A DNA stretch of 54,892 nt from Candidatus Bathyarchaeota archaeon (GTDB lineage Archaea > Thermoproteota > Bathyarchaeia > Bathyarchaeales > Bathycorpusculaceae), in contig CAWGZR010000007.1 of assembly GCA_963827165.1 (NCBI GenBank), positions 1 through 54,892 on the forward strand. Reading direction: 5' to 3'. The notes below the pieces were generated by a model. That model was not told where the DNA came from and did no database searches. It saw only the letters and a list, made by a program, of their open reading frames with translations. Numbering within the stretch: the stretch's first letter is position 1; the number at the start of each line of letters is the position of its first letter. Shown here in pieces: positions 32,401-54,892 of this stretch. Both the position numbers and the translations under genes were made by a program.

Positions 32401-32489
32401 TTAGGAGCCACAATATTAGTCAATCTTGAAAAAACGATAGGTCCCAGACGGAGCGCGCGGTTTTATATTGGGATTTGATTAATCACTCT

Positions 32490-35015: not shown

Positions 35016-35034
35016 CTTTTTCCACCACCCATCT

Positions 35035-36847: not shown

Positions 36848-37213
36848 GCCGATTCAAGCATATAATAATTGATAATTGAGGTTAACATCAAAATGTTCTC
36901 TTGAAATCGCTAAAGTTAAATGTACACTTTGAGAGAAAGTAAATGTACAAGGCACATGCGCCGCTTCTGTTCCGTAGTAATCGGGCACGGATTAAAATTA
37001 GAGTACTATTGTATACGATAAAAGTTGTACCAAGCCTACAAGGGGCGGAGTTCATTTGGTTTACTTGCTCTTTTTCAACCCACATGAAAATAGACAGTAG
37101 TCTATGAGAACCTGGAGATCTCGTTTTTAATAATCTCTTTTGGATAAGTTTATGCGCGTCATTTATATTCGACTGTGACCTGCTCACCGTATCTAGAGAA
37201 GGATCAATAATTA

Positions 37214-39025: not shown

Positions 39026-39040
39026 ACAAAAAAACGTTGG

Positions 39041-41608
39041 TTAATTCGTTTTATCTTTTTGGAGATGAAGCCTTGCGCCTCTCAATTTTTGAGGATGAAA
39101 GATTTTTTTATTTTTGAAAAAGAATTGTTTAGCACGAGAAAATGTGGGTGAAGCAACGAAAGGTTGTTGTTTGTTGGATATTGCTTCTTCGTGTCCCATT
39201 AATCTAAAGAAGTGAATTTTCAGCTGGTCAGTTATCAGGAAGGCAAGCAAAGCGTAGCCCCACACGAAGGCAGCGAAACCCCATCCAATCGGATTCATAA
39301 ATACACCATAAACAGCGAACAACGTTGCAACAACTTGAGTCCCCTCTGTGGCCACAAAAAGAATACTGGCTGGAAGAGGCCGTTTCCAAAAATGGTTCAC
39401 TCCAGTTCGCGCCAAATAAATCGTGAGGTGCCCAGCAACAGCCATTTTAAGGAAAATCAGCGACTGCAGCGTACCAGCGCTTAAGTGGAAAACGTTCAAA
39501 CCAATTAAGAAGAGCAAGAAGCTTGAAACAACGCCCGTCGCGCCAAGCAGAGAAGCCACAATCAATACACCACGCATGTTCCAGCGAACGGGTTTCTCTT
39601 GAACCCTCACATTATCATAAGCGATAGTCATAATTGGAATGTCGTTCAACAAAGCCAGAATGACTAGCATAACTGCTGTCAGCGGGTAGAAGTTGAAGGC
39701 GAGAATTGCAAGCGACAAGAAAATTAATACTCGAGTAGTCTCTGCGATGCGGTAGACGGCGTAATTGGACATGCGCTCGAAAATCCTGCGGCTCTCTTTT
39801 ATAGCATCTATGATGACTGAAAGCCCTGGCTTTGTTAGAACGACATCGGCCGCGGATTTAGCTGCATCAGTTGCTCCTGCAACGGCAACCCCAGCATTTG
39901 CTTTCTTTAATGCAGGTGCATCGTTAACTCCATCGCCGGTCATCCCAACAATGTGTCCTCTCTCTTGGAGCAACTCAACAATGCGATATTTATGCTCTGG
40001 AAAAACTTGGGCAAAACCGTCAGCACTCTCAATAATGCCTTTCGCTTCACTGTCGGGCTTGTCAATGAAAGATGAAGCAGGTATAATATTTGTGCCTAGA
40101 TTGACTTCTTGAGCAATCTCCTTAGCTATAGCAATGTGGTCTCCGGTGACCATCTTGACGTTTATGCCCATCTTTTGAGCTGTTTTTATTGTTTCAGCAG
40201 AGTCCTCTCGCGGCGGATCATAAATTGCAAGAAGCCCAACAAATTGCCAGTTACCCTCTTCGTCTCCCCTAATTATTCCTAAGGCTCGATGTCCCTTGGC
40301 CGCAAAAGTGTTTACAATCTCATTAACTCTATCTTGGATTTCGGTTCTGTTGGAAACAAGAGACAAAACAACCTGCGGCGCGCCTTTAGCAACTCTGAAA
40401 CGCTCACCATTCTGGTCCTCCACAATGGCTTCAGTCTTCTTTAAAACTGGGTCAAACGGCTTAAAATCAATTACACTATATTGACCAAGAGCACCGGCAA
40501 CTGCTCTGATCGACTTGGCTTTGGTGATGACAGCATCATCTATTGGATCGTGATTTTCTTCCCGAGAAGCTAATGTTCCGTACAAGAGAGCATCGTCAAT
40601 TTCGAACTTTCCAAAGGCTTGCGCTTCTGCGATAGTAAGTTCATTCTCTGTTATTGTGCCCGTCTTGTCTGAACATAACACGTCAACTCCAGCCATTTCT
40701 TCAATTGAAACTAGCTTGCTTACAATAGCTTCTTTTTTGGCTAGGACGATTGCGCCAACAGCCATAGTGACTGTCAAAACAGCAGGCAATGCTACTGGAA
40801 TTGAAGCTACAACCAAAATCAGGGCAAACTGCAAAATAGATAATGGGTTGGCGTGTCGAAATAAAGCGGCAATAACAACGGCAGAAACCATTATTGCCGC
40901 AAGGATAATCAGATAGTTACCTATTTTTACGACAGCTTTTTGGAAGTGGCTTGCAGTTTTAGCTTCTGACACCAGTTTGGCGGTTTTGCCAAAGAAGCTG
41001 CTTATTCCAGTAGCCACCACGTATGCATCCATTTCGCCTTGTCTGATAATGGCTCCTGCATAAGCTATATCAGAAATGTGTTTCTCTACGGGCAAGGATT
41101 CGCCGGTTAATGCAGATTCGTCTGCGAGCAAATAGGTGCCTTTCATCAGTTTAACGTCGGCAGGTACAATGTCGCCCAAGCGGACACGCACAATGTCGCC
41201 GGGGACAAGTTCCTTTGATGGTATCTCATGCCATGTTCCATCTCTTAACACTCGGGCTTTTGGAGAAAGCCGCTTTTTCAACAATTCTATCGCGTTGTCA
41301 GCTTTTCGTTCTTGCCAAAATCCCACAACTGCATTCACAATTAGCAAAGTGAAAATAATTGCAAAGTCGTCATAGTGTTGTATAATTATGGATAGTATTG
41401 AGGCAATTTCTATCATCCAGGGAATGGGTCCCCAGAAATAGCCCAAAAACTTGCGAAAAGGGTTTACTTTCTTTTCAGGAATCTCGTTGGTGCCATACTT
41501 CTGCAGTTTTCGAGCTACCTCTTCTGAAGATAGCCCCATCTTGATATATGTAGAAAATGGAGTTTCTTCTTCAGATGGTTTGTTTGATTTTTCTGACGTC
41601 ACTTTCAC
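39041..41608 (-). CDS. Plasma-membrane proton-efflux P-type ATPase (P3A)
   Basis: FWGPIPWMIE, LTGES, SIPVALP, CSDKTGT, KGAP, DPPR, TGDGVNDAPALK, LLND. Confidence 0.95.
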   Translation of the reverse strand: MKVTSEKSNKPSEEETPFSTYIKMGLSSEEVARKLQKYGTNEIPEKKVNPFRKFLGYFWGPIPWMIEIASILSIIIQHYDDFAIIFTLLIVNAVVGFWQERKADNAIELLKKRLSPKARVLRDGTWHEIPSKELVPGDIVRVRLGDIVPADVKLMKGTYLLADESALTGESLPVEKHISDIAYAGAIIRQGEMDAYVVATGISSFFGKTAKLVSEAKTASHFQKAVVKIGNYLIILAAIMVSAVVIAALFRHANPLSILQFALILVVASIPVALPAVLTVTMAVGAIVLAKKEAIVSKLVSIEEMAGVDVLCSDKTGTITENELTIAEAQAFGKFEIDDALLYGTLASREENHDPIDDAVITKAKSIRAVAGALGQYSVIDFKPFDPVLKKTEAIVEDQNGERFRVAKGAPQVVLSLVSNRTEIQDRVNEIVNTFAAKGHRALGIIRGDEEGNWQFVGLLAIYDPPREDSAETIKTAQKMGINVKMVTGDHIAIAKEIAQEVNLGTNIIPASSFIDKPDSEAKGIIESADGFAQVFPEHKYRIVELLQERGHIVGMTGDGVNDAPALKKANAGVAVAGATDAAKSAADVVLTKPGLSVIIDAIKESRRIFERMSNYAVYRIAETTRVLIFLSLAILAFNFYPLTAVMLVILALLNDIPIMTIAYDNVRVQEKPVRWNMRGVLIVASLLGATGVVSSFLLFLIGLNVFHLSAGTLQSLIFLKMAVAGHLTIYLARTGVNHFWKRPLPASILFVATEGTQVVATLFAVYGVFMNPIGWGFAAFVWGYALLAFLITDQLKIHFFRLMGHEEAISNKQQPFVASPTFSRAKQFFFKNKKIFHPQKLRGARLHLQKDKTN

Positions 41609-41805
41609 GAAAGCCTTCTAATTGACAACAAAACTATTAATTCAATAGTAAAAAGCGATGCATTATTGCTTTTTAGCTTTTCGTTGACATCGAACAACAA
41701 TGTTCTGAAAACAGAGACAATATATAATTCATTTTTTATTTTTTTTTTTTAATTCATCTGAAATGTTGTCTGTTCCGAAAGTATTGTTGCTTTGAAATTT
41801 ATAAA

Positions 41806-43455
41806 CTACTCTTTTGCTGTTTTAGTTTTTGTTTCTTTTTCGTTGGTTTTGCGCTTGGGTCTTTTTGGGAAAGAATTGTATAATGCTGCGGCTCTTGCTC
41901 GGATAATTTTTCTTGTTTCAACTGTGACGGGCGAGGTTGCGATTAACTCATCAAGTTTCTTTTTGTTTTCGTCTATTCTTTTTGTGAATTCTTCGTTAGA
42001 TATTTTGCCTTCTGTTTTTAGTTTTCTCAATTCTTCCATGTGAGCGACCATTGATTCGAATTGTTCGTCAATTTCTTTTTCTGAAGCAGTATTCGTTTGC
42101 GGCATTCTTTTCCTCACATAATTTAAAAGCAAAGGCACCTGAAATACGATTGAGATGAAAGCTACTCCAAGCACCATTGTATCTATTGTGTTGATATCTC
42201 CCTGAGAAATAACAGCTGAAGTCGTTATCGTAGCCACTAATGCTATGGACAAAGCGCCTCGCACTCCGCCAAGCATAGCGACGTTACTCCAAACGGCAGA
42301 TATTTTGTCACCGAACCTGTTGAAGATACCAAGTATTGGGTACACTGTGGCGGCTCTTGCTATTGTGACGGCTCCGTAAGCCACGGCAATGAGCAGAACT
42401 GATTGCGAAAGAGTAATGATGTTTGTCTCAAAACCGATTATTAGAAACGCTATCGAGTTGCTTAAGAAGGCGGCTATCTGCCAAAACGTCGTCACAGTTT
42501 CTTTTGACGCGGGTTCCATGGCTGATCGCATCGTGAAGTTGCCAAAGTATAACCCTGCGACGGCGACCGCTATTAGCCCTGAAGCGCCTATTCCTGTTGC
42601 CAAAGCGTACGACCCGTACACCACCGCGACTGCCAAGATGGTTTCGGCTACTTTGTCTTCTATCAAGCTTGAGAGTAATTCGCCTAGAAACGCGATTGCC
42701 AACCCGATTAAAACGCCTGCACCAAGTGTAAACCCGAAATTGAGCACTGTTTGAGTTACTGAGATCTGATGAAGACCGACGGTTGAAAGAATTATTGTGA
42801 AAAGGACGATGCCGGTGGCGTCGTTGAAGGCCGCTTCGGTGTCGAGCAACGTAGATAGTTTGGAAGGAACCTTCACCCGTCGAAAGACCTCCAAAACCGT
42901 AACTGTATCTGTGGGCGCAATCAGCGCAGCGAAAAGAAAAGAAACATAAGGCGAAAGACCCACGATCTTCCACAAGATAAGCCCCCCAACACCAGTCGCT
43001 ATCAAAACACCAACGGTTGCCAAGGCTAACGAAGGCTTGATTACAGCTCGCAAATCACTCGCGCGAAGGTGAATCATGGCTTCAAATATTAATGGGGGAA
43101 CAACTACGCCCACGAAAAGGCCGCCTCCGCCACCTTGGAGAAGTTGAGCGCAAAGAGACCTTAATTGGGAAATCAGATTTTCGAAAGATCCTCCTTGCAG
43201 AGTAAATAATGACGCAACTAAGGTTATTACGACCCCTGTCAAGACCAAAATCAAAGTGTACGGTATCTTGAGCTTTGTAGATAGTACTGCAGCTAAGAAA
43301 GCTATAAGCAGAAATGCTGCCACGATGAGCTCGATGCTGGGAACCAGAACAATCGCCTGCCCTTTGGGTACAACTTTTGTTTGAAGCTTGTTTTCTAATT
43401 CTTCAAAGTCCTTAATCAATCTGTGCTGACAAATAAATACAAAGACCAGCTGCAA
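41806..43455 (-). CDS. Na+/H+ antiporter, CPA1/NhaP family (true start probably ~35 codons downstream)
   Basis: PPLIFE, APTD.V.V, E..FNDATGI, SGLIAV, GGVRGALSIAL. Confidence 0.9.
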   Translation of the reverse strand: MQLVFVFICQHRLIKDFEELENKLQTKVVPKGQAIVLVPSIELIVAAFLLIAFLAAVLSTKLKIPYTLILVLTGVVITLVASLFTLQGGSFENLISQLRSLCAQLLQGGGGGLFVGVVVPPLIFEAMIHLRASDLRAVIKPSLALATVGVLIATGVGGLILWKIVGLSPYVSFLFAALIAPTDTVTVLEVFRRVKVPSKLSTLLDTEAAFNDATGIVLFTIILSTVGLHQISVTQTVLNFGFTLGAGVLIGLAIAFLGELLSSLIEDKVAETILAVAVVYGSYALATGIGASGLIAVAVAGLYFGNFTMRSAMEPASKETVTTFWQIAAFLSNSIAFLIIGFETNIITLSQSVLLIAVAYGAVTIARAATVYPILGIFNRFGDKISAVWSNVAMLGGVRGALSIALVATITTSAVISQGDINTIDTMVLGVAFISIVFQVPLLLNYVRKRMPQTNTASEKEIDEQFESMVAHMEELRKLKTEGKISNEEFTKRIDENKKKLDELIATSPVTVETRKIIRARAAALYNSFPKRPKRKTNEKETKTKTAKE

Positions 43456-43627
43456 AAGCAGGATTTAAGCAAGATTTAAAAATTCGAACCTGAAGCAGTT
43501 TGGATCAATGGGTTCCACACACAGAAGACTAATGACGAGATCGAATCTAAAACAGGAGTGGAACGGAACAGCAGAGGGCTCGGTGGATTCGACTTCAAAA
43601 AGGTCTTTTTGGCAAAATGGGTAAAAT

Positions 43628-43667
43628 CACGGGATTTAATTTTTACATTCACGTTTAAATTCCACAC
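43628..43667 (-). repeat. tRNA-Ser 3'-derived dyad site A
   Basis: CACGGGATTTAATTTTTACATTCACGTTTAAATTCCACAC aligns with site D. Confidence 0.7.
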
Positions 43668-43705
43668 TTTTGGAACCAAGAAATCATGAAACTTTTCTTT
43701 TCTGG

Positions 43706-44356
43706 CTACAAGCATTTGAGGTAACTGATTAGCTTTTGAAATTCTCCAGTTTTCTTCATCTGGTTTTTTCGAAGCATTTCTTCTATATTGGACTTGATGT
43801 AGAGTCCCCCAGGAGGGTACAATTGACGAGCGATTAAAGTGAAGACTTTGCAGTTTTCTTTGTTTATCACTTCTTCCTTGAATCGCCATTTGAAAGGGGA
43901 TCCGGGTGGAAGTAACGTTTCAGAAAGAACGATAACAACAAAATTCCTAACATTGGTAGTTCCTTCGAGTTCGTTGAATTTTGCGCGCAGGACCTTGTTA
44001 GCGTCTTCTCGCTTCCCGTTTTCCAAAGTTTTGCCACCGACAGCATTGTTCTTAATCTCTATTACCATTTTTACGTCGCTAACGGGGAAGGTCTTTTGGT
44101 TTGGGTCCACACCGTTTTTTAACAGAAGCAGATCATTTTTGATCTTAGATCCGTGGATTGTGACGTCTGGAATCATTGAAAGGTTAAGATTCCTTCTCAG
44201 CAGGTGATTGCGTAAGACAATTTCCGTTGCACTTCCAGATTTCTCGCGAGCTGTTTTGTCGATTTTCTGTTTCTCAAATTCTTCACTGACCTCGATCAGC
44301 ATGGCATATTCTTCATCGGTAGCTGCTAAGAATGGTTGATTGGAATAATTGGGCAT
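43706..44356 (-). CDS. PD-(D/E)xK nuclease-like protein (restriction-endonuclease-like)
   Basis: G...E..LR..L helix, NDLLLLK, MVIEIK motifs. Confidence 0.55.
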   Translation of the reverse strand: MPNYSNQPFLAATDEEYAMLIEVSEEFEKQKIDKTAREKSGSATEIVLRNHLLRRNLNLSMIPDVTIHGSKIKNDLLLLKNGVDPNQKTFPVSDVKMVIEIKNNAVGGKTLENGKREDANKVLRAKFNELEGTTNVRNFVVIVLSETLLPPGSPFKWRFKEEVINKENCKVFTLIARQLYPPGGLYIKSNIEEMLRKNQMKKTGEFQKLISYLKCL

Positions 44357-44559
44357 GTCCTAAATATCTCATCACTAACATAAAAAAACTAATCCGCCTT
44401 TTCTTGTTTTTTCGTTTCGAGGGTTTTTTCACGGTTGAATGTGTTAATCATGGCTAGGAAGTAGAAGGTTCTAATGACAAAAGTATCAAGTAATAGATCG
44501 ACAGCACGCCCTAGAAAGCAATAAATTGATGTATTCTTTGGACATACTGAGCGATTTAC

Positions 44560-45009
44560 ATGTCACTTGAAGTTGTGCCTCATGTTGAGCTGGAAAAATA
44601 TTTAGGTAAATGGTATGAGATAGCACACCTTCCTGCAAAATTCCAAGAAGGCTGCAACGAAACCACAGCCACATACACGTTATCAAAAGATGGCAGCATA
44701 TCCGTGCTCAATCAAACGATAAAAAATGGCAAGATGAAACAAGCCAAAGGCAAAGCAAAAGTAGTTGATAAAAACTCTAACGCAAAACTCAAAGTAACCT
44801 TCTTCTGGCCATTCTATGGCGATTACTGGATTATTAAATTGGGAAATAACTACGATTATTCAGTTGTAGGCGCACCCAACCGCAAATATCTTTGGATATT
44901 GAGCCGAACCCCACAAATGGATGACAACCTATACTCACAAATAATAGAATACGTAAAGTCAAAAGGCTTCGACGCAAACAAGCTCATCAAAACTCTTCAA
45001 AAAGCATAA
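44560..45009 (+). CDS. blc: Lipocalin (Blc family)
   Basis: KYLGKWYEIA, KLKVTFFWPFYGDYWI, YLWILSRTP. Confidence 0.92.
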   Translation: MSLEVVPHVELEKYLGKWYEIAHLPAKFQEGCNETTATYTLSKDGSISVLNQTIKNGKMKQAKGKAKVVDKNSNAKLKVTFFWPFYGDYWIIKLGNNYDYSVVGAPNRKYLWILSRTPQMDDNLYSQIIEYVKSKGFDANKLIKTLQKA

Positions 45010-45149
45010 AGCGCATTCAACTAAAAATAATTCACCAGAAACTTCGGATTAAATTTATCGCGTAATTATTGGCAGCTTCAACTTTCACATTGTATTTTGG
45101 ACATAATTGTCAAAAATAAGTTCAGAATAGACCGAAGTTGAAAATGAAA

Positions 45150-45188
45150 CTGAATATTAGGTTTAAATTCACGTTTTAGATTTCACAC
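45150..45188 (-). repeat. tRNA-Ser 3'-derived dyad site B (most degenerate)
   Basis: CTGAATATTAGGTTTAAATTCACGTTTTAGATTTCACAC aligns with sites A and D. Confidence 0.55.
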
Positions 45189-45224
45189 AAAAACCTATGG
45201 AGAAAAAACATTCTGTTTATCGTC

Positions 45225-45839
45225 CTAGTGAAAGTATCGTCCTCCGAATATAATATAGAAAATAGTGACAAAAGCGTAGAATCCTAAGCTGATTTCAATT
45301 GCGAAAAACGAGAAAATTATCGCCAGGGAATATGCTATTGGTCCAATAATCACAATTTTGCTTCGTTTTGCTATTATTTTTGGGTTCGGTTCCTCATGAG
45401 TCAAATGCTGTGTTCTGGGATAGAACCATAGAATGTTGAATAGTATTGAACATGCTAAACCGTTAAGGCCATAAATAATAACTGCAATTGGTTGCAGAGG
45501 GTATCTTCCAAGCAAGGCTGTGGAGAATGGTGCAAGACCGACGCTGAGGAGCAGGAGAAGGTTGATCCACAAAGTCTTAAGATCAATATTTTCGATGTGA
45601 CTAAACATGTTTTGGTGGCTTATCCAAAGTACGCCTAAGAAAATAAAAGTAATAATGTAAGCTAAGAGGTCTGGAATAAGGTTTACGATGTCAGCTTGCA
45701 AAGTCGGGGAAGCGTTTGATCCGGTAATAGCGGGAACCACTAAGCTAAGTACTAAAATAGTCATTACGGTTGCAAATATGCCGTCCGTAAGACCTTCCAC
45801 CCTATTTTTGCTAAACCGAGAAGAAACCTTTTTGCTCAT
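45225..45839 (-). CDS. TMEM175-family K+ channel
   Basis: RVEGLTDGIFATVMTILVL, Y.ITF...W.SH..F, NL.LL.....PFST. Confidence 0.9.
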   Translation of the reverse strand: MSKKVSSRFSKNRVEGLTDGIFATVMTILVLSLVVPAITGSNASPTLQADIVNLIPDLLAYIITFIFLGVLWISHQNMFSHIENIDLKTLWINLLLLLSVGLAPFSTALLGRYPLQPIAVIIYGLNGLACSILFNILWFYPRTQHLTHEEPNPKIIAKRSKIVIIGPIAYSLAIIFSFFAIEISLGFYAFVTIFYIIFGGRYFH

Positions 45840-46125
45840 TTGTTTTTGACGCCTGCCACTGCGCTTTCGTCACGAAGTATTTTTGTCTGATTAATTCTTA
45901 AATTCGAATTTCAGAATACAAGCTCTTTCATTTGACAAAAAAATAGTCAGGTTGATCTAGCATGATCCGATATTGATAGATAATGTTACTCCAATGAAGC
46001 TACATTGACCAATGACAGAGTCAAGCCGTCTTATGCGATGCTGTTCAGTTATGTTATCAAACAAGTTTTCCACGTCTTAATTGGTTAAAAAAGATTTCCT
46101 TGAGTTCTGATTGCCAAAAGAAGCG

Positions 46126-46166
46126 TGGCGCGGGATGTTAGATTTGCACCCACATTCAAATTCCCC
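46126..46166 (-). repeat. tRNA-Ser 3'-derived dyad site C
   Basis: TGGCGCGGGATGTTAGATTTGCACCCAC matches tRNA TGGCGCGGGATGTGGGATTTGAACCCAC at 25 of 28 positions, followed by ATTCAAATTCC. Confidence 0.88.
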
Positions 46167-46253
46167 GAAGATTATTGGGATTTAACTAAGATCGATGGCT
46201 TTTTCAAATTGTTTTTATGTGAGGCTGTCCTAATCTACGAGTGGTGTTTTTGA

Positions 46254-46535
46254 ATGGTTGAAGATTTTGAACAAGACGATTTCGATATGATTGACCCGAC
46301 AGCCAAAAGAGTTCTTGTTACCCTTTCCCAATTTGAGAAAGGTCTTTTGGTGACTGTGGACCTCTTACACAGAAAGACAGGTTTAATGCCTGAAGCCTTA
46401 AACGACGCTGTGCGCCACCTGACAAAATCCAAGCTCATCGACATACCTGAACCCGAAAAAAAACATGGCCCTTACGATTTCAATACCATCGAAATAAGCG
46501 ACTTCGGAAGGCAAGTGATAGCGAAATTCGGATAA
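46254..46535 (+). CDS. Small winged-helix protein
   Basis: L...TGL....LNDAV..L....LI, I.IS.FGR pattern. Confidence 0.6.
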   Translation: MVEDFEQDDFDMIDPTAKRVLVTLSQFEKGLLVTVDLLHRKTGLMPEALNDAVRHLTKSKLIDIPEPEKKHGPYDFNTIEISDFGRQVIAKFG

Positions 46536-46666
46536 AACGCTACAACTAAGCCCTCACCTTAATTATCAACGATACTTTTTTCTTTTTTTAAGAATAACCA
46601 AAATAATGAGATAAGTCCCATCGGGCTAAAACGCAGTCCGCAGGCTAAGCAGGACTCAGTGATTAT

Positions 46667-46936
46667 TTATATTAACTTTGAGAAGTCGTCGTACACCTTT
46701 TTTCTGTAACCGACAAAAAGTACTGTGACTTGGCTTTGCTCTGCATCGATTTCGTAGATTGCTCGGTAATCACCTGACCTTATGCTCCAATAATCTGACG
46801 GGTGTAGCTGTTTTCCCGCCTTGACCGGGTCAAATGAAAGTTCTCCAAGCGCCTTTTTCATTCTTTCTTGACTTACCGGGTCTAGCTTCCTCAGCTCTTT
46901 GGAAGCGGTTGGATGCAGCAAAACCTTAAAGGCCAA
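46667..46936 (-). CDS. relE: RelE/ParE-family toxin
   Basis: A.KELRKLD, W.IR.GDYRAIYEI, V.VLFVG.RK.VY. Confidence 0.9.
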   Translation of the reverse strand: MAFKVLLHPTASKELRKLDPVSQERMKKALGELSFDPVKAGKQLHPSDYWSIRSGDYRAIYEIDAEQSQVTVLFVGYRKKVYDDFSKLI

Positions 46937-46939
46937 AAA

Positions 46940-47158
46940 CTAGGCGTCCTCTAGCGGGACCAACTTTTCAGGGTTCTTTTTGGCTTCTTCGCTTCGTTTG
47001 TTTAGGAGTTCGTAGAATTTGCGGGTTTTTTCGCGTTCTTCGTAGAGGCTTATGATGGTTTTTATGGCGTCGCTTCGGCTTTTGAATTTGCCTTCTTCAA
47101 CCCAAATGTCGATTTCCGCAATCATTTCCGCTGGCAGTCTCAACTGAACTTGAGCCAT
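46940..47158 (-). CDS. Ribbon-helix-helix antitoxin
   Basis: QVQLRLP.EM..EID.WVEEG.FKSRSDAI; directly upstream of the toxin. Confidence 0.88.
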   Translation of the reverse strand: MAQVQLRLPAEMIAEIDIWVEEGKFKSRSDAIKTIISLYEEREKTRKFYELLNKRSEEAKKNPEKLVPLEDA

Positions 47159-47462
47159 AAAGGTTCACTGTAAACAGTAGTGTTTACACGCCTCTTAAGC
47201 CTTGTGCACGGCGCTTTCACATCAAATTTTTGTATCGCCACTCTCTTATGTGATGACACTGCACGCTTCGACCTTGACATGGCAAAACTACAGCCTATTC
47301 AAGAGCTACGCAGGCAACAAACAGGGCATAACCTATCCTGACATGACATGGGAACCAAAGGAATCCTTCAGGGCAGTACCTGACTATTATGCAAAACATT
47401 AGCAGGCGAGCAGGCTTTTGTGCGGTAGCCTTATTTGGCGGATGCAGATTTCTTTGGGTATT

Positions 47463-48071
47463 ATGATTTTGCCTCGGAGCTTCTACAGGGGGGATGTGTT
47501 AGAGGTTGCGAAGAACTTGCTTGGGAAAGTTCTTGTTCATGACACATCCGAAGGCATGACTTCAGGCAGGATTGTTGAGACTGAGGCTTATTGTGGCCCT
47601 GAGGATTTGGCTGCACATAGTGCCCGCGGCCGACGTACGGAAAGAGTCGAGCTTATGTACGGGGAAAAAGGGCATGCCTACATTTACTTCATTTATGGGA
47701 TGTACTGGTGCTTCAACGTCACGGCTGGAGCAACCCCAGGCAAACCTGAAGCCGTCCTTGTAAGAGCACTTGAACCTGTCAGAGGCACAGAGTTGATGGA
47801 TAAGCGGCGAGGCACACAGAACGTCACCAACTTATCAAATGGCCCAGGCAAACTCTGCATGGCGATGTCGCTTACGGGGGCACAGACTAAAGCCGACTTG
47901 ACCAAACCGCCTTTACGCATAACAGACGCTCCGGCCATTCCGCAGGAATGTATTCTAGCTACGGCCCGCATCGGCGTCGACTATGCCGGCGAATGGAAGA
48001 ATCAGCCATGGCGATTCTACATCAAAGACAACAGTTTTGTTTCCACATGGAAAAAGCATTCGCAGGTTTGA
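47463..48071 (+). CDS. mpg: DNA-3-methyladenine glycosylase (MPG/AAG family)
   Basis: VA..LLGK.L, GRIVETEAY.G.ED.AAHS, Y.Y.IYGM.WC.NV, AVLVRALEP, GPGKL, RIG, PWRF. Confidence 0.93.
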   Translation: MILPRSFYRGDVLEVAKNLLGKVLVHDTSEGMTSGRIVETEAYCGPEDLAAHSARGRRTERVELMYGEKGHAYIYFIYGMYWCFNVTAGATPGKPEAVLVRALEPVRGTELMDKRRGTQNVTNLSNGPGKLCMAMSLTGAQTKADLTKPPLRITDAPAIPQECILATARIGVDYAGEWKNQPWRFYIKDNSFVSTWKKHSQV

Positions 48072-48380
48072 TGTGTTTGCTGCTTTCTTAAGCGGTAGCT
48101 TTTTCTTTTCTATGATTTAACTTCCGCTCTTTCAGCCAGAATGATAATGAAAGCGTGAATGGATAGGCTGTGAGCTTAATCAGCTTATTCGAGATAAAGA
48201 ATTAGCAAATAGGAATTCAGGAAGAGTCGAAACTTTTCTAAAAAGAATCAAGAAGTAAGTTGCTGCATCAAGATAAACACAAATGTTTATTTTTCGCTCA
48301 CAGTTTGAGAAATGGCGGAGTAAAGGTTATGCCGTTAAACGTGAATGAGCAAAAAATAGTTCTTGGAAGCAGAGGTGCCT

Positions 48381-48851
48381 ATGTCAGAACAATCAGCGTC
48401 TAAGCCTGAAACCCTGAAAGAACCGGCGCGGCATCATCAGCCGGGGCAGTCGGCATTCCGAGCCATCCTTGCCGAAGACGTTGAGTGGAAACCGTTCGCG
48501 GCGTTCCCACCGGAGGCGCGCCTGGCAGTTCTGGTTGGCCAACCCTTGGAGCGCGGACCTTATACTATCAGAGTCAAAGTGCCCGACGGGGTGAAACTAA
48601 TGCCCCACCGTCATCCTGAGGACCGCATTTATACGGTCATTTCCGGCGTCTTCTACATCGGATTGGGTGATGAATTCGATGCCGATAAGCTAGATGCATA
48701 TCCGCCCGGCGCTGTAATTATTCTTCCCGGAAACACTTCCCATTTCCACTGGGCGAAGTCCGGCGAATACGTCACGCAGGTAACCGCAATAGGGCCTCTC
48801 GGCATGAAATATATCGACTCGAAAGATGATCCGCGGAATGTTCCTCATTAA
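48381..48851 (+). CDS. Cupin domain protein (DUF4437-like)
   Basis: PHRHPEDR.YTVISG.F.IG.G, PG....LPG.T.HFHWA. Confidence 0.85.
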   Translation: MSEQSASKPETLKEPARHHQPGQSAFRAILAEDVEWKPFAAFPPEARLAVLVGQPLERGPYTIRVKVPDGVKLMPHRHPEDRIYTVISGVFYIGLGDEFDADKLDAYPPGAVIILPGNTSHFHWAKSGEYVTQVTAIGPLGMKYIDSKDDPRNVPH

Positions 48852-48988
48852 TACGCACATTTAACCATCTTTTACAATTTAGCGCAGAGCGGGGAATCCC
48901 ATTACCAATTTACCAGTAAAAATATGCATTGAAACGGGCGATAAGAATGCTCAGCCGGTTTAAGAATTCTCGTGCTATCGTGTTAAGC

Positions 48989-49375
48989 TCAGGGCTTCAT
49001 CAAGGTAACATGAATCGGTTCTATTCTTAGAATTACCCTATCGCCGTGTTGTCTGTAATCTATGCCTATATATTTGTGCGATAGCTTATCGATATGTTCC
49101 TCAGCACCTTCCTTTCTTATCTCGACAACTTTGCCCCTGATAAAAAGCGAATCGTAGGGGTCGTTCATATTGAACACGCTTATCGCCACACGGGGATCGC
49201 GCCTAATATTCCTCGTCTTAACCCTGTTCTCGGTCGTGTTAATCAATACGATGTTGCTGTCGTGGTCTACCCAAGTTGTAGTTACGTGTGGGGAACCATC
49301 CCTCATCAATGTGGCTATGTTTGCGAAATTTTTCGCTTCAATCAACTTTTTCGCTTTTTCAGGCAGGTTTACCAT
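48989..49375 (-). CDS. PPOX-class F420-dependent oxidoreductase
   Basis: NFA.IATL..DGSPH.T..W, K.RN..RDPRVAISV, IDKL..KY.G. Confidence 0.9.
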   Translation of the reverse strand: MVNLPEKAKKLIEAKNFANIATLMRDGSPHVTTTWVDHDSNIVLINTTENRVKTRNIRRDPRVAISVFNMNDPYDSLFIRGKVVEIRKEGAEEHIDKLSHKYIGIDYRQHGDRVILRIEPIHVTLMKP

Positions 49376-49706
49376 GTAGACACCCTTACCAAGACTGATA
49401 GCACAAAGATTAATAGCTTTCTTGGCTAGCGAGTCGTGAAACAACGTATAGCAAATGGGCCCGAAGGCGCACGCTGATTCGTGTGAACGAGATAGGGCAA
49501 AATATTACCATTACATTTCGTGGCAACAACGAATATTTATGTGGTTTGTAATAGGTAAAGCGCGCTGGCTTGTCCCGAAATTAAAGCTTATGCTGAAACA
49601 GGGCCTGCTTGTTTCTTCGCGTGGAGGCGCCTCAAAATACGGGACGAAAGAACCAAGCGGTATCACCGACTTATTTCAACACATAATACCCGAACAAGGC
49701 AGCGCG

Positions 49707-50573
49707 CTAACGCTTTACCTTTCTTCTACGAATGTACAAAACCAATCCTCCTGCTACAGCGACTGCCACCACGACTGCAACGACCACGTACTCGGCAAGA
49801 GTTGTGGTTGAAAGAGTGGAAGATGGAGCAAGTGTGGCAATTGGCCCGATGGAACTTTCCTCCCACCAAGCGACAGGCGAATTGACTGTTTCGACTGCCT
49901 GAGACATATCTTGTTGACTGAGTCCTCCAGAATCAGTAATCGCCTGGTTTGCCTGCAGCAAGGCGGTGCTGTTACTTGCGAGGTCTTGAACCTCAACCAA
50001 GCCCTCAATCACCATCACATTAGCGGTGCCATTCTCATATGCTGCCGCAGTAAATTCAGTTCCCCGAACCCCAACAACAGCTGTCACACCGATATCAGCA
50101 TCCCAATTATCGGATCCACCAGTTGCGCTTTGGATGTTTGCCCACAACATACCAAACAGGAGATAAAGGAGGTGGTGTAGGCCGTGAGGGTCTTTATAAG
50201 TGACATTTGTATTCTGGCCTAATAGGATTTTACCGCCAGAGAATTGGATTAACAGTACACTATTCGGTCCCGTCATTATAGTGTCCCCTAAACTTACGGT
50301 GTCAGAGGGAACTAAAGGTGTCCATTCAACGCCTCCATTTGAGCTTATCTGGACTGTCCCAGACACCCTTTGAACGGTAATAGGCTGCTCTGTGGACCCA
50401 TTAACTGCGGGTGCAAGTGCTGGAATTGAGGTGAATGCCGCAGCCAATATGACAGCTGCTATGATTAACGCACTGCAGCCGTAGCGCGCACTAACCCTTC
50501 CTCGCAAGTTATTCGCTCCATCTAACCGCTTTTCGCTTCTTTCATTTAAAGCCTTCCCCCATGTGCGTGACAA
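49707..50573 (-). CDS. Surface-anchored FecR-domain protein
   Basis: Signal-like TM; GD.I.TG.NS, AVVGVRGTEF, V.VIEG.VEV; C-terminal TM plus RRRK. Confidence 0.75.
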   Translation of the reverse strand: MSRTWGKALNERSEKRLDGANNLRGRVSARYGCSALIIAAVILAAAFTSIPALAPAVNGSTEQPITVQRVSGTVQISSNGGVEWTPLVPSDTVSLGDTIMTGPNSVLLIQFSGGKILLGQNTNVTYKDPHGLHHLLYLLFGMLWANIQSATGGSDNWDADIGVTAVVGVRGTEFTAAAYENGTANVMVIEGLVEVQDLASNSTALLQANQAITDSGGLSQQDMSQAVETVNSPVAWWEESSIGPIATLAPSSTLSTTTLAEYVVVAVVVAVAVAGGLVLYIRRRKVKR

Positions 50574-50674
50574 GTCGAATTGATGCCAAGCGCGTCCTAA
50601 AAGTAAGTTAATCGGATGAACTCACCCGTGGAAGTTATGATTCCATGACACTAAGCATAAAAGATGGGTGGGTT

Positions 50675-51109
50675 TTACCCGAATGTTATGTATTTCTTGG
50701 GCTCCATCATGTTAACTCTGCTCCAGTGTTGAGCCTGGCATTTTGCTACCTTCACGATGATCAATCCGGGGCTTTCTGCCGTTATCCCCATTTGCTTTAG
50801 AAAAGGCCGCGCTTCTATCACTTTGCGCTTCATCTCTATATCGTTCACAAACTCAACCTTGCCTGTGACTCGCACCATATCTCCAGTTTTGCTTTTGGGG
50901 TCGAAGAAGCAGACTTCCACTTTGGGATTGACTTTAAGCTGCTTATATACATCTTTGCTCGCGTCCATGCTGTAGTAAAGGCCGGTTTTATCGGCAGAGA
51001 AAAGCTGCAACGCACGCACTTTCGGTTGATCGCCGTCTAAGGTGGCGAAGAAGCTGATTGGGTTGTCGGTTACAAACTTGAGAATTTCGTTCAATTCCAT
51101 AATTATCAC
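50675..51109 (-). CDS. Pyridoxamine 5'-phosphate oxidase-like FMN-binding protein
   Basis: FFAT.DGDQP.VR, K.VYKQL..NPKVE.CF, RV.G.VEF. Confidence 0.88.
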   Translation of the reverse strand: MIIMELNEILKFVTDNPISFFATLDGDQPKVRALQLFSADKTGLYYSMDASKDVYKQLKVNPKVEVCFFDPKSKTGDMVRVTGKVEFVNDIEMKRKVIEARPFLKQMGITAESPGLIIVKVAKCQAQHWSRVNMMEPKKYITFG

Positions 51110-51292
51110 CTAAACAGTAATACTTATGACAACGATTATAGGCTTTTCCAAAGCAGACAAACTGGCGGTTTGGCAGTTTACGGAGCCTCTTGATACTTCA
51201 CACCTGTTTGGTTAGGTTGAATTTGGAAAAACCGAATTACCTCACTTCCATGCCATATGATAAGCGTCTCACAAATTAACGGAATATGGAAG

Positions 51293-51336
51293 TGGCGCGG
51301 GGATGTTAGATTTACACTCACGTTTAAATCCCACAC
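51293..51336 (-). repeat. tRNA-Ser 3'-derived dyad site D
   Basis: TGGCGCGGGGATGTTAGATTTACACTCACGTTTAAATCCCACAC; flank GAATATGGAAG matches the tRNA flank GAATTTGGAAA. Confidence 0.88.
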
Positions 51337-51463
51337 GATAAAATCCATAAAAATATAGGCTACAGGTCTACCATCAGCCTTTGATATTAGCTTTGTGACT
51401 ACTATCCTTCAGTCACATATTCTTTTAACCTTCAAAGTTTTCTGTTTTTTTGGTGGAATCTAA

Positions 51464-51859
51464 ATGATTGGTGAATTAATAATTGAAATAAAAGGGAAAA
51501 CAACGGGTGTCCGCGTTCTAGCAGAAGGAAAGGTAGAGGCGTCACATTCGGGAGCTGGGACACTTTTTGGAAAAGAAGCCACGGTAATGGACACAGCCGT
51601 TTCAACATTCATGCCTAACGGAGTGTTAATGGTAGATGTGAATGGAATACTCATGAATGCTGAAGGTGACTTGGTAATGACAAAGATCAATGGAATGGGC
51701 TGGCCTACAGGCAAAGGCTTGAAATCAAGCTACAGAGGAGCCTGTTATTTCATGACAAACTCACCCAAACTCGCGAATCTCAACAAGACTGTCGGCGTTT
51801 GGGAACTTGAAACAGAAGAAAACGGAGAATACAGTCTCAAAGTCTGGGTATGGAAGTAG
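51464..51859 (+). CDS. Conserved hypothetical beta-barrel-like protein
   Basis: 131 aa, GGTGGA RBS, T-rich terminator after the stop. Confidence 0.7.
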   Translation: MIGELIIEIKGKTTGVRVLAEGKVEASHSGAGTLFGKEATVMDTAVSTFMPNGVLMVDVNGILMNAEGDLVMTKINGMGWPTGKGLKSSYRGACYFMTNSPKLANLNKTVGVWELETEENGEYSLKVWVWK

Positions 51860-52355
51860 TAGCACCCTTTTTTGGGATTATTTATTTCGCAGTTGCTTCT
51901 TTAATATTGCCCAATTGTACTCGGCTAGGCTCACGCAGAGCTAGATTTTTCAATAATTAGCGCGGCGCACCTTAAAGTCTTGAAATGCTTCCTTTAACAA
52001 GATTTACTTTTAGGCTTTTCAATTTTGGGACAAACCAACGCGAATTGCATCACTTTATGTAAATGCTGGTTATTTCAATTTTTTTAACTGTCGCTATATC
52101 ATCAGGTTTTTCTCTATAGTCTTATCCTTCTCGCCTGTCACGCTCAACTTATTTCCAAGTATGTGGATTTAACACTTTTCGGTTCCAAAAATGACCATTA
52201 GACCGGCAACCACCAAGAATGCAATCGCTATTAATGCTCGTATACGAAAATTGTTTACACAGGAAAATCATCTAAAACGTTTGGATCATGAACTAAACCT
52301 GTCCGGAACAATATTGTTCCAGCACTGACAAATATTTTGTTGATTATTCCTTGCT

Positions 52356-52838
52356 TCATGGCTCGGCAAGTATTTTCAAAAGGTTCTTTTCTGTAAAAAT
52401 ATCTCCATTAACCTCTTTATCCACTTCATACAACGTTTTTAGATTGATTTCTTCGTTGACACTCTTTATCTTGATTAGCGCTTTAAGCAGAGCTTTTTCT
52501 CTATCGTCAAAACTCCTTAATTTTAAGGCTCTCTCAAATCGCTTAATCCATCTTCTTTTTTCAATTCCTTGGAAAGCAAACGAAAAAAAAGCTACCAAAG
52601 CTACAATTGAGACCGGCAAGATTGAAATTGAAACTAGAAAATCATGCGCAACGTAGCCTACAGTTACAAGTGCACCAATTAAGAAAACAAGCGCCAAGAA
52701 AAACTCCGGGCGCGCGCCATCATAATTTTTTCTAATTTTCGATTTGTTTTCTTCAACCCAATTAATGAGATCAAGAACTTTATCCAGTGGCTCTTTCGGC
52801 ATCTGGGGCTCTATTTGCTGATTCTCTTTATTAGTCAT
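52356..52838 (-). CDS. Two-TM membrane protein
   Basis: Likely ATG at 52838 after GTGGTGG; two hydrophobic segments. Confidence 0.6.
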   Translation of the reverse strand: MTNKENQQIEPQMPKEPLDKVLDLINWVEENKSKIRKNYDGARPEFFLALVFLIGALVTVGYVAHDFLVSISILPVSIVALVAFFSFAFQGIEKRRWIKRFERALKLRSFDDREKALLKALIKIKSVNEEINLKTLYEVDKEVNGDIFTEKNLLKILAEP

Positions 52839-53162
52839 TTCCACCACTATTTCTAGCGCGCAAGATTTAACTTTTGGCGTTTCCCGTTTTCCCCAAAGTC
52901 TTAAGGATAAAGACAATGAAATAGAAAAACGAGGAGTCCTCGCCACCAATGGGCTCAAAAATTTTCTTAATACTTGACTTCGGATTTTTTCTCTGAACGC
53001 TGAGCGGCGATTCCTAGCCCATTTAACCAACAAAATTTTTTTACGCCAGCCCTGGCATGCCCCAAACCGTCTGGAGCGCGTTAAGCGCGTAAAGCTTGAC
53101 TTCCCGATAACTTAGCGTAAAGATTATTAATTTTAAGAACATTAACTAGAATTGGTGTTTTT

Positions 53163-53561
53163 ATGAGGATTAAGTATCCTGGCGTGTACGTTAGTGATCA
53201 GGGCAAAGCATTAAAGTTTTATACTGAGGTCCTTGGTTTTGTCAAAAAGGCAGATATTACAGCAGGAAAATACAGGTGGCTGACCGTTACTTCGCCTGAA
53301 GACAAGGATGGTGTGGAGTTAGTTCTTGAGCCAAACGAAAACCCAACTGCAAAGGCATACCAAGAAGCTCTCTTCAAGCAGGGTATTCGCGCAAATAACT
53401 TCATTGTGGATGATATCCAAAAAGACTATGAACGATTGCAAAAACTTGGTGTGAAGTTTACTATGCAGCCAACAAAGCTACCAGGCACACCTTCAACCAT
53501 AGCAGTACTTGATGACACCTGTGGCAATTTGATACAGATCACACAGATGGTTTACTCGTAG
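53163..53561 (+). CDS. VOC/glyoxalase family protein
   Basis: VYV.DQ.KAL.FYTEVLGF, RWLTV.SP, ELVLEP, F.VDDI, DDTCGNLIQ. Confidence 0.92.
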   Translation: MRIKYPGVYVSDQGKALKFYTEVLGFVKKADITAGKYRWLTVTSPEDKDGVELVLEPNENPTAKAYQEALFKQGIRANNFIVDDIQKDYERLQKLGVKFTMQPTKLPGTPSTIAVLDDTCGNLIQITQMVYS

Positions 53562-53593
53562 TAATATGGGAGATTGGCGAGTCTAATTTGGAA

Positions 53594-53974
53594 TCATGAA
53601 TATTTGGAACGACTTGTTTCTTTCTGGTTTTCCTTTACTCTGAACTTTACCATTTCCTTTATCAAATCTAATGGTATTGGCTTGTCCAATGGAAATTTGA
53701 CGGTGCCTTGGACTCTGCTTACTTCATAGCCTGACAGTTTGTTTTTGAATTCCTCTATTGCCGACTTCCGCGGATAGAAACCAATGTGATTCTTGAATGC
53801 TCCAAACCAGACCAAGTTGCTATCGAGTTTGAAGGCTGGCATGTTGTAACTAATTGCTTCTTCGGCTTTGGGTGCGGCATCCCTAATCGCATGCCTTATT
53901 TGTTCCAAAACAATTTGAACGTTCTTGGGAAAAGAAGCTATGTATTCATCAATCGAATCAAAATTCTTTTCCAT
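53594..53974 (-). CDS. DUF1801 (YdhG-like) protein
   Basis: IDEYI..FP, AP.AEE.ISY.MP.F, HIGFYP, GT..FP.DKP.P.DLI..MVKFR. Confidence 0.9.
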   Translation of the reverse strand: MEKNFDSIDEYIASFPKNVQIVLEQIRHAIRDAAPKAEEAISYNMPAFKLDSNLVWFGAFKNHIGFYPRKSAIEEFKNKLSGYEVSRVQGTVKFPLDKPIPLDLIKEMVKFRVKENQKETSRSKYS

Positions 53975-54214
53975 GGACTAAAAACACCAAGAGGATATTT
54001 GCAGAGCTTTTCCTAATAACTTTTCGCGTCGCATCCCTTACCCGAAATTTCCATACCATAAAAAGTTTGGGCCTCTATCGGGTTCTGCCCCAAAGATTAT
54101 ATGTGAGTTGATTTGGCTTCAAACAATAGCTCGCAGGGAGTACAGCATTATTTCTGGCGGATAATTTAGGCTTAGTTTCCAAAATTAAAGGTAACAATAA
54201 GCTGAATTTGGAAA

Positions 54215-54300
54215 TGGCGCGGGATGTGGGATTTGAACCCACGCGGCCTTTCGACCACAGACTTAGCAGGCCTGCCCCCTACCAGGCAGGGCAATCCCGC
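54215..54300 (-). tRNA. tRNA-Ser(GCT), CCA encoded
   Basis: GCGGGAT/ATCCCGC acceptor stem, CAGGC-CT-GCT-AA-GTCTG anticodon arm, long variable arm, GTGGG-TTCAAAT-CCCAC T arm, G discriminator + CCA; the usually invariant A14 reads T. Confidence 0.92.
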
Positions 54301-54892
54301 ACGAAACTATTTGGTTGTTCTAAGCCTGTTTAGACTTATTTAGATGTTCAATTTGAACACCTAAGTGGTCAGTCTCAGCCATCTCAGTATGAGGTAATTT
54401 AATTAAAGTTTTCTGAGCATTTAAACCACTGCTATCGCTCAGTTGTCTCTCTGCAGACATCTTGGACTGTTGATAATAGACCAATTTTTGTTCTTGCCGT
54501 AGTCAGCCTTGCCTTCATAAAGCCTAATCATGTAATAGTTGCTAACTGCAGAATAACGTCGATTACACATATGAGATTAGCATCATTTACATCATACTTG
54601 ACTTTGGGACCCATCGTGGTCGATTGCTTTTAAGATTCCCAAGAACTGATTTTGATTCGTAGAACGTGAGATTTCTTTAAACTCAAAAATACGCAATTAT
54701 CTCGCAGTTGCTTCCTAACAAGTGATTGATTATCTATTTTTGTTCTCGCTTTTGTTTTTCTAATTTTTTGAGGTACCTTGAGGCATCTTCAATAAACTTT
54801 TGCTCGGAAGCTGTCCTTTTAGATTCATTTTTCTTTTTCATACGAATCAAGCAATTTATTTAAGATCTTTCCAAACAAGGTTTAGTTATTCA

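Follow-up and report, generated by a model that had tools for sequence, protein, structure and literature searches.

Integrase-less gene cassettes arrayed behind a tRNA-Ser gene and bounded by a propagated site family in a genus of Bathyarchaeia

The stretch of DNA analysed here (hereafter, the window) is the complete contig C7, 54,892 bp long, of a Candidatus Bathyarchaeota metagenome-assembled genome (MAG) referred to as G000. The assembly comprises 3.13 Mb in 14 contigs, with a completeness of 94.5% and a contamination of 3.9%, and, as MAGs may, it may lack plasmids and viruses. The sole tRNA gene that ARAGORN recognizes in the window is a tRNA-Ser(GCT) on the minus strand. On the same strand, 3' of this gene, lie four co-oriented copies of the tRNA 3' end, named sites A to D, each preceded by an extra arm that is absent from the tRNA; the sites delimit small groups of accessory genes (Table 1). 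The array thus formed, and the related arrays of the same genus, point to small gene cassettes entering at a tRNA 3' terminus.

Site A reads TGTGGGATTTAAAC GTGAGTGTAAATCTAACATCCCCGCGCCA and site B reads CGGGGAATTTGAAT GTGGGTGCAAATCTAACATCCCGCGCCA. The four copies are real and not due to chance: when up to 3 mismatches were allowed, the terminal 28 nt of the tRNA found two matches in the window and none in 100 of 100 shuffles, and a profile built on 51 sites from other genomes, with no G000 site among them, recovered all of A–D when scanned across the whole 3.13-Mb genome, along with a fifth site on contig C8 (E = 2.4e-12) and two on contig C1. The measured spacings (2.9, 5.1, 0.94 and 1.5 kb) agree with those of an earlier interpretation of this DNA made without database searches (the sequence-only reading), which had also described the four copies and their extra arm. 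Two of its details have to be modified. The T-stem change, of the CCCAC to CTAAC type, had been attributed to B, C and D and is found in all four sites, A included. The sites had also been described as intergenic, which holds if two overlapping open reading frames (ORFs), one at 43476–43889 (137 aa, without a Pfam family) over site D and one of 56 aa over site A, are treated as non-genes, as is done here.

Table 1. Features of the array in the window, and cassettes recurring in other genomes
Feature	Position	Strand	Evidence and remarks
tRNA-Ser(GCT)	54215–54300	-	Array anchor, CCA encoded; ARAGORN and sequence
T1-type trailer (TTTCCAAATTCAGC...)	54114–54214	-	Start of cassette 1; 93% identity to the C8 trailer despite different cassettes
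Cassette 1	51341–54113	mixed	Pfam; depth low or zero in three of four runs
DUF1801 (cassette 1)	53594–53974	-	Pfam
Glyoxalase/VOC (cassette 1)	53163–53561	+	Pfam
ORF without family (cassette 1)	52356–53033	-	Pfam
ORF without family (cassette 1)	51464–51859	+	Pfam
Site A	51293–51340	-	Left arm, T-arm look-alike, tRNA-Ser acceptor end; E 4e-16 (family model), 5.8e-13 (independent profile)
63-nt segment opening with a second trailer-like CTTCCATATTCC	51230–51292	-	Ahead of the true PNPOx cassette start TTTCCAAATTCA; alignment
Module 2, several cassettes fused	46168–51229	mixed	Pfam; cassettes common to other genomes
PNPOx F40 (module 2)	50675–51109	-	Cassette with two flanking sites in G016, G131 and metagenome contig L110
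FecR-like (module 2)	49707–50573	-
PNPOx F44 (module 2)	48989–49444	-
Cupin (module 2)	48363–48851	+
MPG (module 2)	47418–48071	+
Gene fragment (module 2)	47202–47402	+
RHH (module 2)	46940–47158	-	With ParE (46667–47158), first module of G035
ParE (module 2)	46667–46936	-
93-aa ORF (module 2)	46254–46535	+	Cassette with two flanking sites in G116
Site B	46126–46167	-	E 1.9e-10 (independent profile)
Cassette 3	45194–46125	-	TMEM175-family channel, 45225–45839; Pfam
Site C	45146–45193	-	Decayed; E 6.9e-4 (independent profile)
Cassette 4	43668–45145	mixed
Lipocalin (cassette 4)	44560–45009	+
216-aa protein (cassette 4)	43706–44356	-	Cassette in G010, G023 and L107; right behind the tRNA in G008
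Site D	43627–43667	-	Decayed, last of the array; E 7e-6 (independent profile)
ADH cassette	G000 contig C8		Site-flanked in G001 and G104
ABC-ATPase trio	outside the window		First in G003, G019 and G138; second in G105
Fic gene	outside the window		0–140 nt (mostly 10–45) from a site or tRNA end, at least 11 loci

The search for further members of the family was performed on 120 genomes of the genus, using a sequence-only covariance model built from 18 sites. Strong matches (best E≤1.5e-6) were obtained in 57 of them; at E≤1e-3 the number rises to 72, the 15 weak ones scoring like the tRNA end itself. In a draw of 151 genomes from the order (E≤1e-5), matches were found in G000, in 2 of 12 other members of the genus and, as two weak matches, among 138 genomes of other genera. 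The family consensus is tttttcgTGTGGAATTTAAACGTGGGTGTAAATCTAACATCCCGCGCCA, and the alignment of 53 strong sites yields tttttcgTGTGGAATTTAAAC GTGGGTGTAAATCTAAC ATCCCGCGCCA. Its tRNA counterpart is GTGGGTTCAAATCCCAC ATCCCGCGCCA, the T-arm part of the sites deviating at four fixed positions (TC to GT and CC to TA). Two linked variants can be recognized, GTGGAAT..GTGGGT (23 sites) and GTGAAAT..GTGAAT (15 sites), with 5 mixed cases, 43 of the 51 sites from outside G000 being scorable. The extra arm and the four positions at which the sites depart from the tRNA are maintained in 53 strong sites from many genomes, which supports the idea that the sites represent a propagated family, rather than tRNA ends that decayed independently; in this respect the sequence-only reading is borne out. 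As for the position of the sites, 9 of 20 tRNA-Ser(GCT) loci of relatives have one to three of them within 12 kb downstream, in the same orientation as the tRNA with the single exception of one in G010. Starting from 20 site-centred loci and looking upstream, a tRNA-Ser(GCT) is found in 7 and a tRNA-Leu(GAG) in 1, while the remaining 12 have no tRNA within the retrieved DNA.

The 42-nt site contains a dyad arranged as 14-4-14, in which 67.9% of the cells pair, against 15–49% when the partner column is slid. No covariation was detected when the site was treated as a hairpin (2 pairs changed on both sides against 1.9 in shuffles), and when it was treated as a tRNA minihelix the pairing was the same as in shuffled controls. 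The left arm agrees with the tRNA-Ser 5' leader plus acceptor strand at 12 of 14 positions (tttcgtG.GG.ATT), a similarity which hints that the site end may have begun as an internally deleted copy of tRNA-Ser. A site could accordingly be read as leader and acceptor strand fused to T arm, acceptor strand and CCA, and it includes a TTTAAA motif that resembles an archaeal TATA box; on these grounds the sites might be regarded as functional RNAs or expression signals (mini-tRNA processing, promoters or terminators) and not as recombination sites. This is very improbable: covariation is absent, hairpin and minihelix do not pair better than the controls, the adjoining genes lie in either orientation, and the left arm does not follow the tRNA-Leu 5' end in the arrays located behind tRNA-Leu genes. 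In these Leu arrays the left arm is unchanged, which makes it a part of the cassette and not of the target; for the same reason, its assignment to the 5' end of the target tRNA was rejected.

The Leu arrays also disclose how a site is composed. In G087, G131, G106 and G088 the end ..GTGAATGTAAACCTAAC lies 1–3 kb behind a tRNA-Leu(GAG), co-oriented with it, and is followed by CCTCCGCA(CCA), i.e., by the Leu acceptor end, which replaces ATCCCGCGCCA. The occupied tRNA-Leu genes terminate with ..CCTCCGCAC|TTTGCC (the latter being a trailer of type T2, see below), and the unoccupied tRNA-Leu(GAG) of G000 terminates with ..CCTCCGCACCA accaac. A third acceptor type, CCCGCCCGCCA, stands behind the same end in four further loci, and the terminus of site C1a of G000 is like that of tRNA-Ser(TGA). 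Because one end of about 38 bp joins the acceptor end of whichever tRNA precedes the array, the sites are hybrid junctions, made up of a mobile end of ~38 bp and of a copy of the last 9–11 nt of the target tRNA. In the hybrid sites the switch between Ser and Leu invariably falls directly after CTAAC, and the junction mapped by these sites and by the cassette alignments is at the boundary between T stem and acceptor and at the tRNA 3' terminus, which places the presumptive crossover or staggered cut around the acceptor 3' strand, away from the dyad centre. The sequence-only reading had proposed a lox/dif-like dyad with a CCAC/TCAC core, and hence a pdif-like system; the dyad sequence is real, but a crossover core at its centre is not supported and the comparison with pdif sites does not hold, the junction being 3' of CTAAC. 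In the array of G087 (locus L068, 5915–5962), which follows a tRNA-Leu(GAG), the two proximal sites are of the Leu type and the most distal one is of the Ser(GCT) type; this hints that array segments might have moved between tRNA loci.

The flanks located 3' of sites and tRNAs are conserved for 60–100 nt and sort into two types of trailers, T1 (TTTCCAAATTCAGC...) and T2 (..CCTTTTGCCAAATAGGGCTTGATTATTG..), on the basis of which a cassette can be described as a trailer, a cargo and the conserved end of ~38 bp (tttcgTGTGGAATTTAAAC-GTGGGTGTAAATCTAAC), a mimic of the T arm of the tRNA. In order to compare cargoes, ORFs were predicted in all loci and then clustered. The same cargo recurs in different genomes at differing positions of the array, bounded by sites, with genes on both strands within and between cassettes. 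As an example, in the alignment of the PNPOx cassettes the homology starts right after ..GCGCCA, at TTTCCAAATTCA, and stops just past the stop codon; the 63-nt segment that precedes this start in the window is present in G131 and missing from G016. Module boundaries in relatives thus coincide with the sites for the PNPOx, the 93-aa ORF and other cassettes. Among the most widely shared cassettes is that of the 216-aa protein, found in G008, G010, G012, G023, G125, G135 and metagenome contig L107 (8 loci). Most of the cargo identities previously assigned (lipocalin, TMEM175, ParE/RHH, MPG, cupin, glyoxalase/VOC and DUF1801) are confirmed by Pfam; the 216-aa protein, which had been called a nuclease, has no Pfam match, and its VIEIK motif (E-x-K) is compatible, by eye only, with a PD-(D/E)xK fold. 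In locus L071 of G105 (oriented coordinates 6668–6977) the first site lies ~310 nt behind the tRNA without any intervening ORF, as in an apparently empty cassette. Module 2 of the window contains at least five cargo units that recur elsewhere as cassettes, plus one gene fragment, in 5.1 kb; degenerate sites were searched for inside it and none was found. Since it has no internal sites, it is partly fused and now behaves as fixed DNA.

The recombinase was searched for with PF00589 in 21 genomes overall. No match was obtained on contig C7 at E≤1, and the arrays of 16 genomes (G000 and 15 array-bearing relatives) contain neither an integrase nor a remnant of one at E≤0.1 to 1, in agreement with the earlier statement that no integrase lies between the sites. 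For this reason, a trans-acting enzyme is the simplest reading. Several candidates were considered and rejected. The integrase at G016:C6:582349 is 7.5 kb from a weak site, with no demonstrated link to the arrays; that of G023, 17 kb downstream, adjoins a tRNA-His and likewise has no demonstrated link; and distant integrases or pseudogenes of G010, G029, G030 and G001 (21–63 kb away) have no strong site adjacent, the extended regions around them giving weak matches only (score <19), away from arrays. A serine recombinase/resolvase is absent from the array-bearing G135 and G131, and Cas1 (PF01867) is absent from the complete, array-bearing genome G003; both were discarded as movers, neither occurring in all array-bearing genomes. 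The Cas1 gene of G000 (C4, 270196–271088) is broken by a TAG stop codon. No match to the site pattern was found in viral contigs, and no integrase in 10 ORFs scanned from the 43 metagenome contigs that carry the same cassettes; among these 10 ORFs, one DDE transposase lies beside a site (contig L121). Cargo proteins were also evaluated as recombinases and rejected: Pfam assigns no family to F12 (216 aa) or f26 (406 aa), and Fic was recognized by its HPFxxGNGR motif. The recurrent cargoes F21 and F23 resemble, by eye, a regulator pair. The Fic-domain gene (loci L065, L066, L067, L069, L071, L074, L077, L051, L038, L039 and L035) is invariably on the opposite strand, its stop codon adjoining the site or the tRNA end, the place usual for an integrase. 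Given the negative outcome of the array, resolvase, Cas1, viral, metagenome and integrase-subfamily searches, the enzyme is either unlinked or unbinned.

These data bear on a simpler scenario, that is, a plain tandem accretion in which each module once held its own tyrosine integrase, later deleted, and the sites are ordinary attR scars. The tRNA 3' ends are the classic target of such enzymes, arrays produced by the re-use of one site are known (PMC6563490; 10.1101/2020.12.28.424599), module 2 displays the expected decay in the form of a gene fragment and lost sites, and in relatives longer, near-exact partial copies of tRNA-Ser (positions ~30–86) are interspersed among the sites. Moreover, G000 itself harbors two ordinary tRNA-borne elements, one at tRNA-Ala and one at tRNA-Leu(TAG). 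These, though, lack the extra arm. Furthermore, single-gene cassettes of 0.7–0.9 kb between two sites leave no space for an integrase, G019 has a 57-nt repeat at 100% identity around 2.6 kb devoid of integrase, and neither the arrays of the 16 genomes nor the scanned metagenome ORFs retain a fragment of one, so that this scenario appears rather unlikely. The first ordinary element (C10, 392660–407473) is at a tRNA-Ala(TGC), encodes a 421-aa Zn-ribbon tyrosine integrase and has a 24-nt repeat 14.8 kb away; the second (C5, 314726–333146), at the tRNA-Leu(TAG), has an integrase fragment and a 26-nt repeat. Both have a TGGCGATATC(G/A)CC palindrome ~10–15 nt left of the far repeat.

The hybrid joints might otherwise derive from a transposition-like process, in which staggered cuts flank the acceptor 3' strand, a linear cassette is inserted and 9–11 nt are duplicated, as done by casposases or Cas1-Cas2. 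Under this scheme target-specific circles are unnecessary, and it would account for an acceptor part that always matches the neighbouring tRNA, for a 38-bp end that is identical for Ser and Leu targets, and for filled tRNA-Leu genes that have lost the CA of CCA, which persists at the distal copy. It is nevertheless improbable, in view of the distribution of Cas1, missing in G003 and broken in G000, of cassette ends in which no terminal inverted repeats are visible (compared by eye only), and of the Leu array of G087, whose distal site of the Ser type it does not predict.

The variability of the array could be followed in populations. Contig C8 of G000 harbors a second tRNA-Ser(GCT), followed by a different first cassette (ADH), by a site and then by the same flank as site A. 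The window at 54114–54892 and C8 (region 47273–49798) share 93% identity over 782 bp, the first cassettes being different. C8 terminates within the site A flank, and for this reason the two contigs probably represent alternative haplotypes from strains that co-occur and not two loci of one genome. The Logan assembled contigs of four public soil runs were then aligned to 43000–54892, bearing in mind that circles and rare forms are not visible in assembled contigs. In runs X2 and X3 there are contigs that match module 2 as far as position 51301, which lies in site A, and from there on run into a C8-type site; the depth of cassette 1 is 0.7–2 in X2, against 5–7 elsewhere, 0 in X3 except for one bin (1.16 at 52131–52527), and 0 throughout in X5. 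The first cassette is hence polymorphic in nature, with the breakpoint in the site. Two other joints, 47208>51301 and 49384>54215, are represented by one low-depth contig each, probably from related strains, and are hints only.

Such replacements might also be brought about by homologous recombination on a portable patch (site plus trailer, ~100–150 bp) present at every boundary and tRNA, which would swap and stack cassettes with no dedicated recombinase acting today. The conservation of T1 and T2 trailers for 60–100 nt past the site is in keeping with this possibility, as is the fact that C7 and C8 differ in the tRNA flank (93% identity) and in cassette 1 and reconverge from inside site A, as expected for an imported patch. 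Homologous recombination, however, leaves unexplained the origin of the first sites, the co-orientation of all sites but one, and the Leu hybrids, in which the cassette end and the Leu T arm agree at no more than 12 of 17 nt and the stem boundary is precisely where the switch occurs. As the principal mechanism it is unlikely, although it may act alongside the insertion process outlined below.

On the whole, the reading that we favour, with a probability of roughly 0.6, is that a site-specific recombinase acting in trans inserts integrase-less cassettes one by one at the 3' terminus of the tRNA; this enzyme would probably be a tyrosine recombinase, with the acceptor strand as its overlap. Small mobile cassettes of one to a few genes, without a recombinase of their own, would enter one after the other at the 3' terminus of tRNA-Ser(GCT). 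Each insertion would duplicate the last 9–11 nt of the target (acceptor 3' strand, discriminator, and C or CCA), and the tRNA would remain intact because these nucleotides are copied; the far end of the cassette, joined to the copy of the tRNA end, would become a site. The newest cassette would enter beside the tRNA and push the older ones outward, and old sites would decay, as C and D, or vanish, as in module 2. The process may be a conservative site-specific recombination of a circular cassette, by an enzyme possibly encoded elsewhere, whether on the chromosome or by a plasmid or virus that escaped binning, and most likely belonging to the tyrosine recombinases, with an overlap of ~7–9 bp corresponding to the acceptor strand. 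For comparison, the overlap of lambda is 7 bp and archaeal integrases use tRNA stem-loops (PMC8371274). The cassette array is thus the part of the sequence-only reading that is supported, and its lox/dif-like core the part that is not.

Several observations weigh against this reading. No recombinase could be tied to the sites by the searches of the arrays or by the clustering of integrases: 46 of them, from 6 site-bearing and 4 site-free genomes, do not form any subfamily marking the site-bearing genomes, and the Zn-ribbon/421-aa and the ~490-aa families occur in both kinds of genomes alike. No circular cassette junction was seen in the assembled contigs, in which circles cannot show. A tyrosine recombinase requires matching overlaps, and separate Ser-type and Leu-type circles would be needed; a mechanism duplicating its target would explain the hybrid sites more simply. 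Neither simple model directly predicts that the most distal site of the G087 Leu array should be of the Ser type. C7 and C8 diverge by 6.5% also in the tRNA and in its upstream flank, a difference more in keeping with DNA imported through homologous recombination than with the simple exchange of a cassette. Lastly, module 2 extends for 5.1 kb without internal sites.

The comparison with known systems helps in delimiting what these arrays are. Integron cassette arrays (IntI, attI and attC) have been reported in archaeal MAGs (10.1101/2022.02.06.479319). Like integrons, the arrays described here have a fixed entry point, a head-to-tail organization with the newest cassette beside the entry point, and small cassettes, mostly of one to few accessory genes (toxin-antitoxin pairs, small enzymes), with a conserved site at the far end. 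Three defining features of integrons were tested and none was found. No IntI-type PF00589 match exists in or beside the arrays of the 16 genomes, the entry point being a tRNA 3' end. The attC site, with its R''/L''-L'/R' boxes, forms an imperfect hairpin and recombines as a folded strand, whereas in these arrays the site joins a T-arm look-alike of 38 bp to a copy of the end of its target, with no attC-type hairpin and no covariation. Integron cassettes are mostly promoterless single ORFs in one orientation; here both orientations occur and the cassettes have their own upstream regions. The integron alternative put forward by the sequence-only reading is consequently set aside.

Closer similarities exist with other elements. 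As in the tycheposon islands of Prochlorococcus (10.1101/2020.12.28.424599) and in archaeal tandem arrays (PMC6563490), one tRNA 3' end is reused, partial tRNA copies lie between modules, older modules are found outward and the cargo varies by strain; those islands contain integrase elements and fragments, none of which was found here. In addition, the joints of the present arrays form a family that is conserved and propagated and that differs from the tRNA at fixed positions, and one cassette end serves several tRNAs. Of the features of a classical tRNA-integrating tyrosine-integrase element, one is observed, the far junction carrying the tRNA 3' end as a direct repeat (Ser or Leu, following the adjacent tRNA); the internal integrase, which the bona fide elements of G000 at tRNA-Ala and tRNA-Leu(TAG) carry, is not. 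Cis-mobilizable elements (CIMEs) are flanked by att sites, lack a recombination module and are decay products beside an integrative and conjugative element that mobilizes them in cis. The concept is the closest in logic to these arrays, with att sites on both sides, no integrase and an enzyme coming from another element; unlike CIMEs, the arrays have no adjacent helper, far smaller cassettes and a genus-wide site family, and no helper of this type was found in the viral contigs (0 matches), in the 10 scanned ORFs of the 43 metagenome contigs or among the integrase subfamilies. Xer-exploiting elements (IMEX) and pdif modules are integrase-less, have short dyad sites and use the host recombinase; the modules described here are also integrase-less and bounded by short dyad sites, but the junction is outside the dyad, the site does not have the 11-6-11 layout of dif and the anchor is a tRNA. 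The target duplication of casposons is of 14–15 nt, while here it is of 9–11 nt; the cassettes have no Cas1 or PolB, Cas1 is missing from G003 as a whole, and no inverted terminal repeats were seen by eye. What is shared with casposons is the insertion at tRNA 3' ends, the target duplication and the tandem arrays (PMC4779613, PMC6563490).

The rest of the window offers some further observations. Upstream of the tRNA-Ser(GCT), G000 has PNPOx and YhfC genes, and other genomes carry different ones. On the other side of the array, the region 37214–43528 (~6.3 kb, including a Na+/H+ exchanger) shows 80–86% identity to contig C3 of G000 (32242–38632), with one part inverted; the similarity to this paralogous region ends ~100 bp from site D. 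Internal tandem repeats are present at 15359–16253 (75–79% identity, offsets of ~120–250 bp), with relatives at 257.3–257.9 kb of C4 and 202.9–203.2 kb of C9, and probably belong to a gene for a repeat-domain protein. The neighbouring 1.16-kb stretches 33850–35006 and 35084–36240, 70.7% identical, represent a tandem gene duplication, and a dispersed repeat of ~160 bp at 2789–2968 has copies (75–94% identity) on at least eight further contigs.

In the literature surveyed, subscription journals and supplements aside, no description was found either of arrays like these in Bathyarchaeia or of a cassette end that mimics a T arm. It may tentatively be proposed, as a possibility somewhat short of an even chance, that the arrays represent an undescribed archaeal gene-capture platform, in which the 3' ends of class II tRNA genes (Ser, Leu) serve a genus of Bathyarchaeia as entry points. 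Through them a pool of cassettes without integrases would be taken in, each cassette being marked by a portable T-arm mimic of 38 bp and moved by an unlinked enzyme that duplicates the acceptor end; the whole would be an independently evolved functional analogue of the integron. Candidates for this enzyme would be a tyrosine recombinase domesticated by the host and an integrase of a new kind. Among the platforms that gather promiscuous single-gene cassettes, only integrons are well understood, and they require a linked integrase; the architecture described here is integron-like with a different origin, with a tRNA as the anchor, no linked recombinase, and a distribution limited to a single archaeal genus, about half of whose species have it. 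The use of one cassette end for several tRNAs sets the system apart. If the cassettes are active, they would explain how accessory genes (toxin-antitoxin pairs, Fic, transporters and small redox enzymes) are exchanged in these uncultured archaea, they would point to a recombinase with a compact and portable target, and the 38-bp end would provide a sequence marker for the flexible genome in metagenomes.

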